Source of the DNA: Mobula hypostoma
Taxonomy: Eukaryota
NCBI RefSeq assembly: GCF_963921235.1
Contig: NC_086097.1
Coordinates: 70,868,001-70,932,000, forward strand
Reading direction: 5' to 3'
Length of the DNA: 64,000 bases
Shown here piece after piece: positions 37,501-62,168 of this stretch (positions are counted from its first letter, which is position 1; the number at the start of each line of letters is the position of its first letter). Position numbers and translations under genes: made by a program. The notes beneath the pieces were generated by a model. That model was given only the letters and a program-made list of their open reading frames with translations. It did no database searches and had not been told where the DNA came from.

Positions 37501-37620
37501 TACACAGCAGTCCTCAATGCCCTTCTGATGCTGTAATTTTGCTCAGTGGGCTTCAGTTTTTTTTTCCATGGACTGTACATTCGCCCGCAGAATAGTTGGG
37601 AGCGGGGGAATCTAAGGCCT
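34560..37620 (-). mobile_element. Long degraded Rex1/Babar element (APE endonuclease plus RT), interrupted by a younger Rex1
   Basis: PTILRANVQS start, [38 protein letters not shown]. Confidence 0.85.
35339..36172 (+). mobile_element. Younger 5'-truncated Rex1/Babar insertion
   Basis: Open 177-aa segment (ISEDLTWS..KKAQQRLYFLR..WYGNC); AATAAA followed by an (aatct)n tail. Confidence 0.92.
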
Positions 37621-40619
37621 CTACTTTTCTTTTTCAATATTTTTATTAGTTTCTACATAGAAGAATACAGAGTACAAGAAAGTATATATAAAGGTCGAAA
37701 AAAACAACTACCAATTACATTAAATCTATTCATAATAACAATCTCATTACCCTGTATTCATGTAGGTTAGTCAAAGTTATATTGAAATATACTACTTTAT
37801 TACAAAAAGAAGAATCTAACCCCTACCAAGACCGAAGCTGTTTATTAAGGAAAAAAAAAGGTAAAATACCTTCGCGTATAATAAAAATTAATAATAGCCA
37901 ACATCTGAATTTAAACAATGAATTGAGGTTTTTGAAAGTTTTAAAAATAATTCAGAAAGGGTCCCCACAATGTTTGAAAGTCTTGACAAGATACAGAAAT
38001 TGAACAGCGAATCTTCCCTAAGTCTAAGCATGACATAAACGTCGCATAACCATTGACAATGAGCGAGAGGAGAAACGTTTTTCCATTTAAACAAAGGCGC
38101 CCTCCTAGCTATAAGAGAGCTAAAGGCCAAAATATGTAAATCTGATGTCTTCAACTTGATATCTTGTCCTGCAACAATATATAAATATAAATATAGGGCC
38201 GTCAGAGGATTAGGCTTAAAATTGACTTTGAAAAGTAAAGAAAAAGTATGAAAAACTTCCAATATTTTTCAAGACATGGACAAGTACAAAACATATGAAT
38301 TAATGAAGCTTCTCCATTATTGCATCTGTCACAGTAGGGAGATATATCCGAATAAAATTGAGATAGCTTATCTTTAGTCATACGGACTCTATGTACCACC
38401 TTAAATTGTATGAAGGAATGGCGAGCACATAGTGATAACGTATTAACCAATTTAAAAAAATTTGTTCCACGTTTCCTCAGATACTTATGTCTGTAAGTCT
38501 TGTTCCCAGAGAGTCTTAATTTTGTCTAAAGGAGCATTCCTCGTCTCCAGTAATATACCATAAATATTAGATATTGAAGCATTATAAAAAGGTGTCAAAT
38601 TAAAAATTACATCTAGTAAGATCTTATCTGAGCTTATAAGAAATGTGCATAATTGAGATCTTAGAAAGTCTCTAATTTGTAGATATCTAAGAAAGTGAGT
38701 TTTGGATAGGCCATATTTAGCTGACAATTGTTCAAATGAAAAAAGATTTCCTCCAACAGATCCCAAAAACATTTAATACCCAACCTGTCCCATTCTTTAA
38801 AAACTAAATCAGTCATGGAGGGTTTAAAAAATTAAAACAAATGAGACTAGAAAGGGAAAATCTCAATAAACCAAAATGTTTTCTAAATTGTATCCAAATC
38901 CTCAGGGTATGTTTAACTATTAAATTATCAGTTAGTTTACTTACAAATAAATGAAGTGAGGATCCAAGAAGAGAAATAATAGAAAATTTATTAACAGAAT
39001 TAGCTTCTAAAGAAACCCATACTGGACAGTCTACGCGATTAATATAATATATCCAAAATGTAAGATATCATATATTAATTGCCCAGTAATAAAGCCTAAA
39101 ATTAGGTAAGGCTAATCCTCCAGACTTTTTAGGTTTTTGAAGATGAACTTTATTTACGAGGATGTTTATTTTTCCATATATATGAGGATAAAATAGATTC
39201 AGGAGAGTCAAAAAAGGATTTAGGAATAAAAATGGGTAAAGCCTGAAAAAGATATATAAATTTAGATAGAATATTCATTTTAATAGAATTAATTTGTCCA
39301 ATCAACAATATTGAAAGAGATGACCAATTTAATAATATCTTTTTTACATGATTCAATAAAGTAAGGAAGTTTTCTTTAAACAGGTGTTTATAATTGTTAG
39401 TGATTGTTACACCCAAATAAGTAATTTCATTCCTTACAATTTTAAAAGGAGGATTAGTATTAATTGGTACCAAATTATTTAAAGGAAATAACTCACTCTT
39501 ATGTAGGTTCAATTTATATCCTGAAAACTGGCTAAAACGGGAAAGTAAAGGAAGTACATAAGGTAACAAAATCTCAACATTCGAGATAAAAAGCAGTATA
39601 TCATCAGCGTAAAGTGAGATTTTGTGGATGATATCTCTTCTTAAAATAACACAGGTATCATTAGATTCTCGAAAAGCAGTAGCAAGGGGTTCTAAAGCTA
39701 AATCAAAAAGCAAGGCACTCAACAGACAGCCTTGTCTAGTTCCCTGGTGAAGTTTAAATGGTTTGGAATTTTGAAAATTAGTAAGAACTCGAGCAGAAGG
39801 AGATAAATGAAGTAATTTAATCCATTGAATAAAATCTGGTCCAAAATTAATTTTTTCTAAGGCTTTAAATAAATAATTCCATTCAACCCGATCGAAGGCC
39901 TTCTTAGCATCTAAGGATATTACACATTCCGATATTTCCTGAGAAGGAGAGTAAATAACATTTAATACACGGCGTATATTAAAATGGGAATATCGGTTTT
40001 TAATAAATCCAGTCCGATCATCAGAAATAATAGAAGGTAAAATATTTTCAATCCTATGAGCCAGAACTTTAGAAAGAATTTTAGTATCGACATCAAGTAA
40101 TGAAATTGACCTATATGAAGTGCATTCAGCTGATCCTTGTTCTTTTTTAGGATAAGCAAAATAGAAGCTTCATAAAAAGATTGAGGCAAACTACCCAATT
40201 TGAAAGAATCCAACAGGACTAAGTGTAACTGCGGTATAATTAATGAAGAAAAAGCCTTATAAAATTCTCCAGAAAATCCATCTGGACCCGGAGCCTTCCC
40301 CGAGTGTAATGAACATATTGCCTCGGCAATTTCCTCATAATAAATGGGTTGATCCATCTGTTTGCAATTATCTGCGGAAAGTGCAGGGATATTTAATTGA
40401 TCTAAAAAATTGTTCATTAAAGTATTTTCTGTAGGGGAGTCAGAACTATAAAGTATAGAATAGAATTCTCTAAAGGTATCATTTATTTCAGAGTAATCAT
40501 TTGTTCTATCACCATTAGTTTTGCAAATTTCTTTAATTTGTCGTGTAACTACAGAAGTTTTTAATTGGTTGACCAATACTTAGCCTGATTTATCTCTGTG
40601 AATGTAAAATTGAGTTTTA

Positions 40620-40850
40620 TTAGATTAGATTAGATTATGAGGACCCTTAGTCCTCGTTTATTGTCATTTAGAAAAGCATGCATGCATTAAGAAATGTTAC
40701 AATGTTCCTCCAGAGTGATATCACAGAAAAACAGGACAAACCAAAGACTAACACTGACAGAACCACATAATTATAACATATAGTTACAGCAGTGCAAAGC
40801 AGTACCATAATTTGATAAAGAGCAGACCATGGGCATGGTAAAAAAAAGAA
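40620..40850 (-). mobile_element. Short LINE tail (Rex1/L2-type, (AATCT)n end) inserted in L1 ORF2
   Basis: tagattagattagatt and tttattgtc (minus-strand AATAAA) interrupting the L1 ORF2. Confidence 0.65.
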
Positions 40851-41904
40851 GTTGAATTTCAATTGGATATGTTAACAGAAGATCAACTTTAGTTTTAACT
40901 TCAACACATCTTTTATATAGAACAGGGTCTGGAGCTATAGCATATTTTTGATCTAATTGTTTTAATTGATTGGCTAATTCAATTCTTCCTTTATTACCTT
41001 TGTTCTTAACACTCGCAGTATAAGAAATAATTTGTCCTCTAATATAGGCCTTGAGGGTATCCCATACAATAAGATTAGAAGTCTCTTCCTGTTTATTCTC
41101 CTCAAAAAAAAATAATATGCTTCTCTAGAAATTTTTAAAATTCCTTATCAGATAACAAAGTTGTATTAAGATGCCAGAATCTGTTGGCTTGAAGAAGACC
41201 AGGGAGTTTTAAAGATAAAAATATAGGAGCATGGTCTGAAACAGCAATCTCTTGATATTCACAGGAATGAACTGATGAGATTACTTGACTATCGATAAAA
41301 AAAATCAATCCTGGAATATGTGTGATGAACATGGGAAAAAATGAATATTCCCTATCTAATGGATGTAAGAAACACCAAACATCAACTATACCTCACTTTA
41401 ATAAAAAGGATTGAATAAACAAAGTTGATTTATTAAGAGCCGCTGGTTTAGAAGCTGATTGGTCTAAGATTGGGTCTAGCCAACAGTTAAAATCTCCTTC
41501 CATCACCAAAGAATAAAGATTCAGATCTGGTAAAAATGAAAAAAAGCATTCAAAGAATTTTGGGTCATCTACATTTGGGGCATACACAGTGCCAAATACT
41601 ATTTTATTATCTAGTTTTCCTGAGACTATAACAAAACGTGCATTAGTATCAGACACTACTTTATGTTGGACAAAGGAAAGTGTATTATCTATAAGAATCG
41701 AAACTCCTCTAGATTTGGCCTGAAAAGAAGAGTGAAAACAAAGTCCATTCCAACGGCTAAAAAACCGTAGATTATCACATTAGCGTATGTGAGTTTCTTG
41801 TAAAAAAATAATAGAGACCTTAAATTTCTTAATATAAGCAAAAATCTTATTACGTTAACCCTTTCACGTTAAAACTGAGTAAAGTAGTAGTTTGGTCCAT
41901 TTTT

Positions 41905-43856
41905 TTAATATAATTTTTATTGAGTTTTCAAAGTAAATACAAGAGAAAAAAAATCTACCCTCCCCCCCGATATATACTACTACCTAAAGAGAAAAGAAAA
42001 AAAAAGAAGAACCGCCGGAATATTGGAAGGTTTCCACATGCTCCATGGGATTAAAAATATATTTAATATATATTTGTTACTTTCCCCAAGGAACCAAGAT
42101 CTTTAGCATATCTAAAACATTACTTAGCTTCTCAACTCTCTTAGTTCCCTGGGGAATCTCTTTGAACTTCACCATGTTGCTATGTGTTTCCCTCCCAATC
42201 ATCCAGGCAAAAAGAAAAAAAAATAGATGAGATACAAAAAAAGAAAAAACAAAATACCCCCCCACTAATGTTGTGAATGAAAAGATACACAACACTACCA
42301 TCCTCCATTTTGCAGGTCGTGGCTATTGCTACGTTTGCACACATGAATAATGTAGCGATTCGTTAGTGTTTCTTCCAGCTCCCCGGTAACAAAAAATTGT
42401 ATATATATAAAAAAGAAATTAATGTCATTATTCCCAGCTAGTATTCCTCAAATTTTAACCTTTCTTCCCCTCCCTCATATAATTAATAATATATTTATAT
42501 ATTCATCCACCTAAAAATCCAACAGGCCTATTCTTTGATCCAGTCTTCATCTTCAATCCATCTCACTCCCCTGGGTTTGTTCTTGTATCTGGTGAATATT
42601 CAAAGAATCTCGCACAAACTCCTCTGCTTTCCGGTAATCGTCAAAAAATCTTTTTTCCTCCACCATTCAAAAAAATCTTCAAGGTTGCAGGATAATGCAA
42701 TATAAATTGATAACCGTGATCCCATAGGGCTTTTTGCACTGGATTAAATTTCTTTCTTCTCTTCAAAAGTTCATAACTTATGTCAGGGTAGAAACAAATT
42801 TTCTTCCCTTCTATCATCAGTGGCCCTTTTCTCTTCTTGGCAGCTTGGGCAGCTGCCTGTAGAATCCTTTCTTTGTCTTGAAATCTTAAGAATTTTATTA
42901 AAGTTGATCGTGGATATTGGTCATCTTGTGGTTTTGGTCTTAGAGCTCTATGTACCCGCTCAATTTCAATTGATCGGTCTTCCTCTTTCATTTGCAAGGT
43001 TTTCGGGATCCATCTTTGAAAAAATTCTATTGGATTATCTCCCTCTATACCTTCTTTAAGACCAACAGTTTTAATATTATTACGTCTACTAAAATTTTCC
43101 AACACATCCACTTTCTCCAAGAGTCGATTTCTTTCCGTGTTCCAGACAAGCACATCATTTTCTGTTTTTTCCACTCTATCGTTAATATGCTCCATTGTTC
43201 TTTCCATCTTCTGAAGTTTCTTATCCATTTTATCCTGTCTTTTCATAGCTTTATCATAGCACATCTTCACGTCTCTAAGCTCTGTTCTTAATTTTCTTAG
43301 TTCAGCCATTAATTGTAATAAAGCCTCTCTTATGTCTCCGTCGTCTCCTTTACTTCCAGTCTCTTCCAGTTCTTCTTCCTCTTCTTCATCATCTGTATTC
43401 TCTGCGGAATCCAATTCTGACTCTGAGTCACTTTCAGTTGCAGTGGCCGTCGGTTCTTATAGTTTAAGTTGTGTAGATTTGCGTATGCTTACTTCTTTGC
43501 GCATGCGCATTTCCGGCATCTTCTTCCGAGAGTCCGCTACCGCCGCCATTGCTCCCTGTTCTTCTATGCCAGACATAAAATATGTCTCCTCCGAAGGAGA
43601 TCCAACCTGAATCCGAGGCTCCATCGCTGTAGTAGGTCCTTTTCTTCCCATCTCGCGGCGACTTCACAACAACAGACTTCTTCTGTTGTTTACGTTGCGG
43701 TTTACGAGGCATATCGTAGAGTAGTCTTACGAAGTTTATAAGTAGTTTTCGGAAAGTATTTTTTAACTTTACTTTGTTTAAATGGTACTTTGCTGATTTT
43801 TTACGGAGAGCTGGATTTACACGTCTCAATCCCATGTCATCACGTGACGCCCCCCC
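41905..43856 (-). mobile_element. ORF1-only L1 derivative (HAL1-like) with 14-bp TSD
   Basis: 5' end GGGGGGGCGTCACGTGATG; ORF1 (coiled coil, LENFSRRNNI, IERVHR, FYPDIS); no EN or RT; AATAAA plus short A-tail; TSD tttggtccattttt at 41891-41904 and 43857-43870. Confidence 0.85.
42641..43414 (-). pseudogene. L1 ORF1p-like reading frame (257 aa open segment; original start probably the ATG at 43712)
   Basis: In frame with the upstream segment 43457-43651 across a single stop; a frameshift links to MPRKPQRKQQKK at 43712. Confidence 0.85.
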
Positions 43857-44630
43857 TTTGGTCCATTTTTAATATTGTTTAAAGGAAGGGTTAAAATGTA
43901 AGTTAAAAACCAAACCATAAACCTTGAGAAATGGTAACTAAGCAATAAGTTGGCTAAAAATTCGCTAACAGCTTCTAGGGAATAGACCATAACCCCGCCC
44001 ACCTCCCAAAGAAAGAAAACTGACCAATAGAAAGTCAGCATCTACAAACTACTGACAACTCCCCAAAAACCTGGTAATCATTCCAAATAGTTTCCAGGTT
44101 ATTTATATTCCAACCTAGACTAAACAATACCCAAACAAGAGATTCAGCTCTCGTATATCAAAAATACAGTATTAAAAATACAAAAGGAAATTAGTTACAA
44201 AGGTTTACCTGTCATGGTCCGGATTGGGGTCCCTTTAAATTTGGTTTGTTTATGTTACGATCCGAACCGTTGATTCCCTGTTTTCCCGTGTCCCTCGACT
44301 TTGGTGATTAGAGGCAATTAACACTCGGCTGAACCGGTAGTTTATAGTCTCCGGCTTTCAGCCGTTCAGCGCGGGAGCATCTGCAAAATCTGCAAAGTCA
44401 CGGCGTGCCAATGTCATCTGGCCGGACCAAGCCTTGTCTCCGCCCGAAGCGAGTGCCGGTAATTCGCCTTTCCTCACTGGAGCAACCCTGTCCAGTTACC
44501 TCGCCGAAGCGAGCCTGCAAAGTTTCCTCTTCAAGGTGGGTCCGTCAGTTAACCCGCCGGAGAGAATCATGAGCCGCTGTCTACTGTTCCCGGGCCGAGT
44601 CGAGAGCTGGGCACTACTCAGAGGTTCCAA

Positions 44631-44955
44631 GCACCACGTCCACGTCCTGGCTCCGGCGGCATCCGAGTACCACGTCCACGTCCTGGCTCCAGCGGCATCC
44701 AAGTACCACGTCTAGGTCCTGGCTCTGGCGCCGTCCAAGTACCACGTCCACGTCCTGGCTCCGGCGGCGTCCAAGTATCACGTCCACGTCCTGGCTCCGG
44801 CGGCGTCCAAGTACCATGTCCACGTCCTGGCTCCGGCGGCGTCCAAGTATCACGTCCACATCCTGGCTCCGGCGCTGTCCAAGTCCTGTCCCTGGCAGCA
44901 TTCAAGTACAATGTCCAAGTCCTGGCTCTGGCGGCATTCAAGTACCATGTCAAGT
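44631..44955. repeat. 36-bp minisatellite (~9 units) inside the solo LTR
   Basis: Unit gtaccacgtccacgtcctggctccggcggcgtccaa. Confidence 0.95.
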
Positions 44956-45274
44956 CCTCCAGTTCTGAGTCTAGTCCTGGCCCTGGCGGTCTGTGATTCC
45001 TGTCCTACCCCCTTGACTGAATCCCTTCTCTGCCCCTCTCACCTCTAGCCCTCGTCTGCAACCTCCGCCTGCACTTCGGTCTAGTTCCATCACTGGAGCT
45101 AGCTAGGCACTGTCTGGTGTTCATTCGTGTTGGTCTTGTCTTGTCTTGTCCTCGCCTCCGCGGGGTAGGTCAGGCCGTCTTGCCGTTGCCCCGCAGGGTG
45201 TCATGTTCTGTCTTGTCTTGTCCTAGGTTCCGGGGCGTAAGTCAGGCCGTCTTGCCGTTGCCCCACAGAGGTCA

Positions 45275-45450
45275 TGAGTCCCGGCCCTATGTCCTGTACC
45301 CAAGGAGGGGTTCCAGCTCTCTGTTCTGTGTGTGAGTCCTGGCCCTATGTCCTGTACCCAAGGAGGGGTTCCAGCTCTCTGTTCTGTGTGTGAGTCCCGG
45401 CCCTATGTCCTGTACCCAAGAAGGGGTCCCGACTCTTGTGTTCTGTGTAT
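45275..45450. repeat. 58-bp tandem repeat x3 inside the solo LTR (a ~70-bp duplication precedes it at about 45135-45270)
   Basis: Unit tgagtcccggccctatgtcctgtacccaaggaggggttccagctctctgttctgtgtg. Confidence 0.9.
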
Positions 45451-47709
45451 GTGTCCATGGTTCCATGTACCTGCTCCCGAGACCGAGGCTCTGCGTTCCC
45501 ATGTTCCTCCTCTCCCTAGCCCATGTCATGTCCATGCCTGGTTCTGGGGTCCGAGCCTGAGGCAAGACCCAGGTACTGGGTCCTTGCCCAGTCTCTGGCT
45601 CGGAATCCATACCCTAGTCTCTTCATGTCTCCTCTAGTTCTGGGAGCCGATTCCGAGTCCTAGCCCAGACCCTTGGCCCCAGCCTGGTCGTAGTCCTCAG
45701 TCCTTGTCCACTTCGCTACTCCTGCTCCTGCCTAGCTGTCATGGTATCAAACAATAAACTAAATCTAAGTAACCTCACAAGATGTGTCTTGCATTTGGAT
45801 CCACCCCTTGCTCCCAATGGCCCGCCATTGTGACATTACCAAAAGTAAAAGATATAATTATTCATACAGATAGACATTAAACATTAATCTTATATCTTCA
45901 TGGAAAAACAGACTAAGTAATTAACTTCCAAATTTAAAAAATCTTTGTGCTTCAACATTCAAATGAAGCTATTCGAAGGATCCATCTTTAATGAGATTCT
46001 CAGTCAAACTGGGTAGCCAATGGACGGGTTAAAACCCTTGTTAAAAGAAGTTCCAACAGAGCTTGTTTAAACTTAGCACACTCCTGCATAACCTCAAAGC
46101 GAATAATCTTCGAGAATCTTAATATTCCACCCTATAACCAGACATGTCCCTTCGACGGAGTTTGCAAATTAAAAGTTTCTCATTTAATCTTGTGTCTTCA
46201 TGTAAGGAGAAATTAAACAATTAGCCTTCGGATTTAACCTTCAGATTTTAAAAACTTTTGTGCTTCAATAGTTGAGTGGAACCATTTGAAAGAACCGATT
46301 TTAAGTGTGATTCTGAGTCGGACTGGATAGCGAAGGGAAGGCTTGAAACCCATATTAAAAAGCTTGGACATAACCTCTTTGAATTTAACATGTTTCTGCA
46401 TAACCTCCGGCGAATAATCTTCAACAATTCTAATCTTGCGACCATTATAGTCAATCATGCCTCTTCGATGAGATTCGTGAATTAAGAGTTCCTTTGTTTT
46501 AAGCTCATGAAAGCAGATTATTACTGATCTTGGTTTCTGAGCGTTAGGAGATCTAAATGCAGGAGATCTGTGAACTCGTTCGATCATAGGCATAGACGGC
46601 AAAATCTCTGGAAATAATTTTTGCAAAATGTTTGCAAAAAACTCCATAGGATGGTTACCTTTGATTAATTCTTCGAGACCCAGAACCTATAAGTTGTTAC
46701 TTCTACTTCTATTTTCTAGGTCGATAATCTTCTGTCTTAACTTTTCGCTGGACTTTGATTGCTTTTCACAAAGCTTCTGCAATTCATCCACTTTCGTCTC
46801 CAGAGCCAACAAATTTTCCTCATTATTTTTAATATGTTTATCGTGTTCATTAAGAGTTGGTTGAATAGAGTCCAATTTACCATCTATTTGTTTAAATTCA
46901 GTGCTGAATTGTTGAAACTTCTCAGAGGCTTCTTGTGTATGACTTTGCAGCAATTCCATATTAGAATCCGAAGAGGCAGGAAAATCATCCTTTTTAGTAT
47001 CTCTGGCACTCCTTCCAGCCATAATGAAAGAATATCACACTTAAAAAATAAGTTTCAAGACAGGTTGGAAATAGTAAGATAATTAAAGTTGGAGTAGATT
47101 GCTGTTACTCCATCAGGTTTCCTCATTCTTAAAGGGGAACTGCTTTTGCGTCCTGACAAAGTAATTCGCTGGGACAAAATAGTTACAAGGATGATCTGAT
47201 ATCTTCTCCCAAGCACTGAAAATTAATGTTGTGAATGCTGACTCTTTTGAGTAAACAAATATCTGAACTATTGATACAGCAAATATGCCGTTACCATGCT
47301 AAGTGACAATAATAGTCTGGTCTGAAACCTACCTTGCATTCAATCACACTGGTGCAAAATAATAGCTCATATTGTCTGGGTTGATGCAGGCCAATTAACA
47401 TGATACCATTGTCTTGCATCTTCATGATCACCACTTTGTATACCATATCTCTCGACTAGTGGACAAGTGGCCTGTGTTCAGGCTACTGTTGTGAGCCATT
47501 TGATGAACAGCATTGAGTTACTTCTTGACACCCTATATAACCCCATCCCAATCCACTGGTTACATTGGTTAATATTGCAGTGTGGGGTAAACAAAGTAAT
47601 CCAGCAAGATATATTAGTGAATATGATGTGCTATTTTCCCAATTAAAAGCTATTTGCAAACATATCTGAATGACTGGTGTCTTGTCGCACTCATTTCAAT
47701 AATAAGCAA

Positions 47710-61885: not shown

Positions 61886-61936
61886 CATGGTGAGAATGTG
61901 CCAGCAGAAGGGGTAAATGCAGTTGGATTTCAACAT

Positions 61937-62168
61937 TTCTCTTTCAATATTTTTATTCTTTACTGCATAAAGCAGTACAGAGTACAAGAAGATATATATT
62001 ATAAATCAAAAGAAAAAAATAAAATAGTACCAAATACATTACATTAAAAATACAGTTACAATCACAAAACCCTGTATTCATAAAAAATTAGATTAAATTG
62101 TAATACTGAAATATAATAATTTTGTTATATAGAAAAAAAATCTAAACCCACTACCAAAGTCAGAGCTG
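61937..62168 (-). mobile_element. L1 3' UTR fragment
   Basis: Similar to 37625-37850 (tttcaatatttttatt...tacagagtacaagaa...ccctgtattca). Confidence 0.8.

Follow-up and report, generated by a model that had tools for sequence, protein, structure and literature searches.

The HAL1 (half-L1) elements of mammals were reportedly described by Smit in 1999 and by Bao and Jurka in 2010. According to the accessible text of PMC5753468, HAL1 encodes ORF1p alone and has had several origins in mammals. The available part of PMC5786205 groups HAL1 with HeT-A and Ag-Sponge as bipartite, ORF1-bearing non-autonomous LINEs that arose by internal deletion. In guinea pig, the coding capacity of HAL1 ORF1 was maintained for about 29–44 million years (PMC3627910, in the sections available), and HAL1 is tied to 3'-truncated ORF1 RNAs in the portion of PMC4859970 consulted. 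HAL1 outside mammals, whether in sharks, rays or other fish, was not found in the literature searched (excluding Repbase, Dfam and most subscription papers). For L1 of fish, the passages available from PMC5381506 give a 5' UTR of 113–267 bp, inter-ORF spacers of 311–730 bp (mean 536 ± 132 bp) and 3' UTRs of 167–2157 bp; the word 'shark' does not occur in the text of that source.

The locus reported here is an ORF1-only unit of 1952 bp on the minus strand (43856–41905), flanked by 14-bp duplications, in a window of 64 kb (the whole stretch of DNA that was analysed). The first-pass annotation of the window had described a minus-strand unit of about 1.95 kb with a G-rich 5' end and a 5' UTR, and this description holds: the unit begins with G7, and its 5' UTR of 144 bp (43713–43856, minus) is within the range of fish L1. 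At the other end, the AATAAA motif and short A-tail of that description are found at 41921–41916 (minus) and as just two A residues outside the target-site duplication (TSD), respectively.

In L1 retrotransposition, the ORF2 protein cuts DNA at TTTT/AA and starts reverse transcription from the A-tail, and a short duplication remains; the insertion site of the unit agrees with this pattern. The 5' copy of the 14-mer (43870–43857, minus) is preceded by TT, giving the TT/AAAA site noticed earlier, and the 3' copy lies at 41904–41891 (minus); there is no third place for this 14-mer in the 64-kb window, and a chance match, estimated from the local base composition, has a probability of about 1e-8 per site. 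Four sequencing runs (X1, X2 and X10, from relatives, and X21) were aligned to positions 40900–44250. In X1, X2 and X10, one contig each connects 41890 to 43857, omitting 1966 letters, with 14 letters (13 in X2) that match both sides. These contigs are copies of the host L1 family without the unit, and the unit is therefore a true insertion. If the A-runs are allowed to vary, five further letters agree ahead of both copies of the 14-mer, and the duplication may then be 19–21 bp long instead of 14 bp; one X10 contig follows the window down to 41901 and then has a different flank, which favours 14 bp. An assembly artefact as the source of the unit is ruled out by the empty-site contigs and the high copy number of all parts of the unit.

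The unit has landed within another L1 on the minus strand, one that is decayed and nearly full length. ORF1 of this host L1 (46234–47034, minus), with one stop, was assigned by strand and order, its Transposase_22 match (E = 3e-4) being just under the cut-off. The host spacer is present as a downstream part of 344 bp (43871–44214, minus), which the empty-site contigs join directly to the host ORF2, and as another 175 bp at 45746–45920. The decayed host ORF2 (EN, RT and zf-RVT) and the 3' UTR, identified by domain and profile matches, extend over 37620–41900 (minus). The first ATG of this ORF2 (41900–41898) falls within the 3' copy of the duplicated 14-mer, the insertion being at the ORF2 start.

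There are other rearrangements and L1 fragments in the window. A second partial copy of the 3' end of the host ORF1 (46180–45921, minus) lies in tandem behind this ORF and is 70.7 per cent identical to 46493–46234 over 263 letters. The host spacer carries a GC-rich insert of 1.5 kb (44215–45745) that has tandem repeats inside it and the same 10-letter word at either end. Loose ends at 44210 are found in 62 contigs of X1 and 54 of X2, so this insert is a high-copy repeat, perhaps LTR-like. A short unrelated stretch, recognized by eye at about 40830–40620, interrupts the host ORF2. Further along the window lie a third, 5'-truncated L1 (59030–61885, plus), 66 per cent identical to the host RT region, and a small piece from the 3' end of the host L1 family (61930–62157), 72 per cent identical to 37620–37829.

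ORF1 of the unit (42553–43712, minus; about 385 codons) was identified by protein matches, a profile and Pfam. The 'few lesions' attributed to it are two frameshifts (near 43647 and 42657) and one stop (43459–43457), to which nine additional in-frame letters near 43685 can be added. Among 10 matches out of 971 candidates, Mobula hypostoma gene models are its nearest named relatives (81 per cent over the whole query, 91 per cent over 57 per cent of the query), followed by proteins of Hemitrygon and Hypanus at about 50 per cent identity. A profile built from the ORF1 relatives matches LINE-1 ORF1p in the PDB with an E-value of 4e-16, and two of the relatives (P0001 and P0002) pass Pfam Tnp_22_dsRBD. 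Judged by its sequence, the predicted product is an L1-type ORF1p, broken in this copy. It was described earlier as clearly unlike the ORF1 of the surrounding L1, and the two are indeed 28 per cent identical over 215 amino acids. No relatives of this ORF1 were found in the metagenome contigs, viral contigs or prokaryote genomes scanned.

Three public gene models (P0001, P0004 and P0012) consist wholly or partly of L1 ORF1p, and are named for host genes (transcriptional adapter 1, tRNA deaminase 1) or have RING and B-box domains. They are probably chimeric gene models, or they may represent exonisation of L1 ORF1p.

Changes private to the unit were sought in ORF1. There are 15 ORF1 places among the best 40 of 447; three of these are shared with other copies and were removed, leaving 12 sites, which are few. 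Nine of the changes are non-synonymous and three synonymous, with 20–26 per cent synonymous changes expected without selection. For this small number of sites, the split suggests a pattern as expected without selection.

Neither EN nor RT was detected in the unit, in agreement with the first-pass annotation. The best match of an ORF2 profile, based on 70 full-length ORF2 proteins out of 120 retrieved, has an E-value of 0.42, against 4e-87 for the host EN and 2e-36 for the host C-terminus as controls. An ORF2 with EN and RT after ORF1, by which an autonomous L1 is recognized, is thus lacking in this copy. The 120 ORF2 proteins give three matches on the unit at chance level (E = 0.08–0.1), one of which lies in the 5' UTR in antisense orientation; none matches the non-coding tail, and none of 156 proteins from the ORF1 searches matches the tail at E = 0.05. 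By eye, the tail faintly resembles an ORF2 C-terminus, but neither tblastx nor the ORF2 profile supported this resemblance.

The tail after ORF1 had been put at about 700 bp. It is non-coding as described, but it measures 648 bp and is composed of two pieces that meet at 42105–42110. The first, of 443 bp (42110–42552, minus), can be read as the inter-ORF spacer of the parent from its length and from a weak resemblance to that of the host (4 of 300 shuffles, in one of 18 comparisons). The second, of 201 bp (41905–42105, minus), ends with AATAAA and the two-A tail and would be the 3' UTR of the parent, judging from its length and polyadenylation signal; in comparisons with the 3' UTRs of the host and third L1 it scores no better than shuffles (41 of 300 and 52 of 300). 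Both lengths are within the fish ranges given above, and because the two halves fit a fish L1 spacer and 3' UTR, the absent part is probably ORF2.

The point where the pieces meet (42105–42110, minus) is a deletion junction at which contigs of relatives depart on both sides, leaving four letters between the breaks. In X1, X2 and X10, these contigs exit the window into other sequence. Among the best-supported 24 of 897 loose ends, those before 42110 come from four contigs of X1 and one of X10 (69 letters), and those behind 42105 from four contigs of X2 and one of X10. The same is seen in two of the best 24 of 11 330 aligned pieces: a piece of X2 spans 42110–42298 and has 48 foreign letters at 42110, and one of X10 spans 41957–42109 and is followed by 50 foreign letters. 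None of these 24 pieces, and none of 15 of the 28 joints, crosses or bridges 42105–42110. The extra sequence that relatives carry here is at least about 50 letters long, with 30 loose letters seen per side. Premature polyadenylation in the spacer is ruled out as the origin of the short form: the end that bears the A-tail is past the break, and the relatives carry their extra sequence before this end.

At 42141, there are 16 contigs in X1, 21 in X2 and one in X10. Their distance to the contig end, which we take to be a maximum, is 32 or less in every run, as a break at 42110 would demand; the median elsewhere is 44–52. Equally low values are found at 6, 2 and 8 of 37 other places (X1, X2 and X10, respectively), and at 6, 2 and 7 of 23 places within the unit. 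The three runs are not independent at the junction, since changes of this copy itself affect all three. Inspection of the loose letters by eye reveals, on the left, an ATG 22 letters beyond the break that would make a spacer of 465 bp and, on the right, a TAA nine letters ahead of the break; each sign is weak alone, and an ATG among so few letters has a near even chance.

Splicing could account for a neat loss of ORF2. In this scenario, ORF2 left the parent transcript as an intron, and retrotransposition then acted on the resulting ORF1 mRNA, much as for the SpIREs of human L1. By eye, the loose letters contain a GT four letters beyond the left break and an AG whose end is eight letters short of the right break, and the accessible text of PMC5860796 reports that spliced L1 RNAs retrotranspose in humans. 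The human cases in that text are spliced within the 5' UTR or into ORF1. Between the breaks, 12 letters would remain after splicing; the window has four, which would call for two further small deletions, and no exact GT–AG junction is seen by eye at 42105–42110. We regard this origin as very improbable.

Parts of the unit are present in 20 of 24 listed runs, from seven studies and four organisms, with a best word share of 0.45 in any run; there is no RNA run containing parts of the unit among those listed. Run X21 (raw reads) has low-complexity matches only, in 70 reads, all partial. The summed depth over the unit in X1 and X2 is about 7000 to 98 000, against 10–70 for single long pieces; summed depth does not equal copy number, and the excess is such that every part of the unit must be a high-copy repeat. 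The ratio of depth at the 3' end to that in the spacer is 1.24 (X1), 1.02 (X2) and 0.58 (X10), with no 3' excess, an argument from even depth that is weakened by the AT-rich and diverged 3' piece, whose alignment depth is lower. Among the pieces listed, the long ones differ from the window by 9–35 letters. This exact locus is thus not seen in any of these runs, and the source species may be absent from them; a family confined to that species would therefore be missed.

On these data, we estimate a probability of about 0.55 that the unit is a one-off or rare copy of an L1 that lost ORF2. The first-pass annotation had named, as the case opposed to its own proposal, that other copies carry ORF2; the extra sequence in X1, X2 and X10 leans towards that case, short of proof, and the even depth along the unit leaves a family tenable. 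The unit would be dead and belong to an abundant L1 family of rays; its middle, most likely all of ORF2, would have been deleted, so that the inter-ORF spacer became joined directly to the 3' UTR. An L1 ORF2 protein would have nicked a TT/AAAA site that happened to lie just ahead of where ORF2 begins in an older, unrelated L1, and the RNA would have been copied there by target-primed reverse transcription, producing the 14-bp duplication. The deletion may have occurred once or rarely, by a template jump at insertion, in the source copy, or later in the chromosome; the four letters between the breaks suit imprecise repair or a jump. If it came after insertion, the element would have moved as a normal full-length L1 with no help in trans, and if the source copy was already deleted, such help would have been required. 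Because a deletion after insertion leaves the TSD intact, the TSD cannot prove that the short form moved.

Several observations count against a one-off deletion. A 6-kb family with many 5'-truncated copies would be expected to show an excess of depth at the 3' end, which is not seen, depth being no copy number. A random deletion would seldom have its breaks so near the two presumed ends of ORF2, and a chance meeting with the unit in the small part of the genome scanned would be likelier if it had many sisters. The extra sequence at the junction is known only as more than about 50 letters. A weak point on the same side is that no longer, fused ORF1–ORF2 form of P0001 occurs among the 6899 candidates of a weak search.

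The same data bear on an amplified HAL1-like, ORF1-only family, which, its two forms taken together, is a serious possibility at somewhat less than an even chance. In the first form, ORF2 was lost once and the 2-kb element spread in trans by means of the ORF2 protein of its parent, and the loose ends at the junction are explained by the full-length parent. A complete 5' end, ORF1, polyadenylation signal and TSD, the almost entire removal of the presumed ORF2, the even depth along the unit and the repeated origin of HAL1 in mammals are all in its favour. It is unlikely, in our view, given that none of the contigs listed in three runs crosses the junction and that the only X10 contig at 42141 ends there. 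There is also no synonymous excess among the 12 private sites, and no second copy of the unit in the 64-kb window; like the departing contigs, both of these points argue for the one-off copy.

In the second form, the tail of the family extends somewhat further and may, for instance, include short scraps of ORF2, and the present copy suffered a small private deletion at 42105–42110. An extra stretch known only as at least about 50 letters and the even depth would accommodate such a tail. The 15 of 28 joints include no short-insert bridge, although contigs of 150–360 letters occur, and both halves are already of normal length for a spacer and a 3' UTR; we consider this form improbable. The broader proposal of a ray-specific, amplified ORF1-only L1 family, produced by near-exact loss of ORF2, perhaps through splicing, and constituting an origin of HAL1 independent of that in mammals, is tentative, and we would sooner doubt than accept it. 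The chondrichthyan HAL1-like family proposed in the first pass retains its HAL1-like anatomy and its setting in cartilaginous fish (the nearest named ORF1 relatives being those of Mobula, Hemitrygon and Hypanus), and a family mobilized in trans is a conjecture drawn from a single copy.

If such a family exists, the HAL1 lifestyle extends from mammals to cartilaginous fishes, and the coexistence of parent and derivative makes the cis requirement of ORF1p testable by comparing selection on their ORF1. If it stands alone as a deleted copy, the unit amounts to ordinary L1 debris and carries the caution that a TSD around an ORF1-only unit is no proof of movement in that form.

Compared with full-length fish L1 as given by Boissinot and Sookdeo in the available sections of PMC5381506, the unit has a similarly short 5' UTR, long AT-rich spacer and T-rich 3' UTR with AATAAA and an A-tail. 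Its ORF1 of 1160 bp exceeds the range of 780–1059 bp given there, and the ORF2 of about 3.8 kb is absent. The SpIREs of human L1 are likewise internally shortened copies; unlike the unit, whose junction is no clean GT–AG join, they arise when the 5' UTR or ORF1 is spliced, as far as the accessible part of PMC5860796 goes. HeT-A and Ag-Sponge (PMC5786205) and the R2 SIDEs (PMC3414825) also consist of 5' and 3' LINE parts joined by internal deletion. From what is available of these sources, they belong to other clades (Jockey, CR1 and R2) and have proven propagation, whereas the unit is known from one copy.

The closest likeness is to HAL1. On the available accounts of HAL1, the unit is also derived from L1 and has a 5' end, ORF1 and 3' end without ORF2; it shares the L1-type ORF1p, the lack of EN and RT, a TSD at TT/AAAA, a polyadenylation signal and an A-tail. 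The route through 3'-truncated ORF1 RNAs, as set out in the part of PMC4859970 consulted, differs from the unit, which retains its 3' end. HAL1 forms amplified families in mammals, as described in the texts at hand, and here there is one broken copy in a ray. The unit is built like HAL1, and the evidence of the junction contigs leans against membership of a family of that kind.
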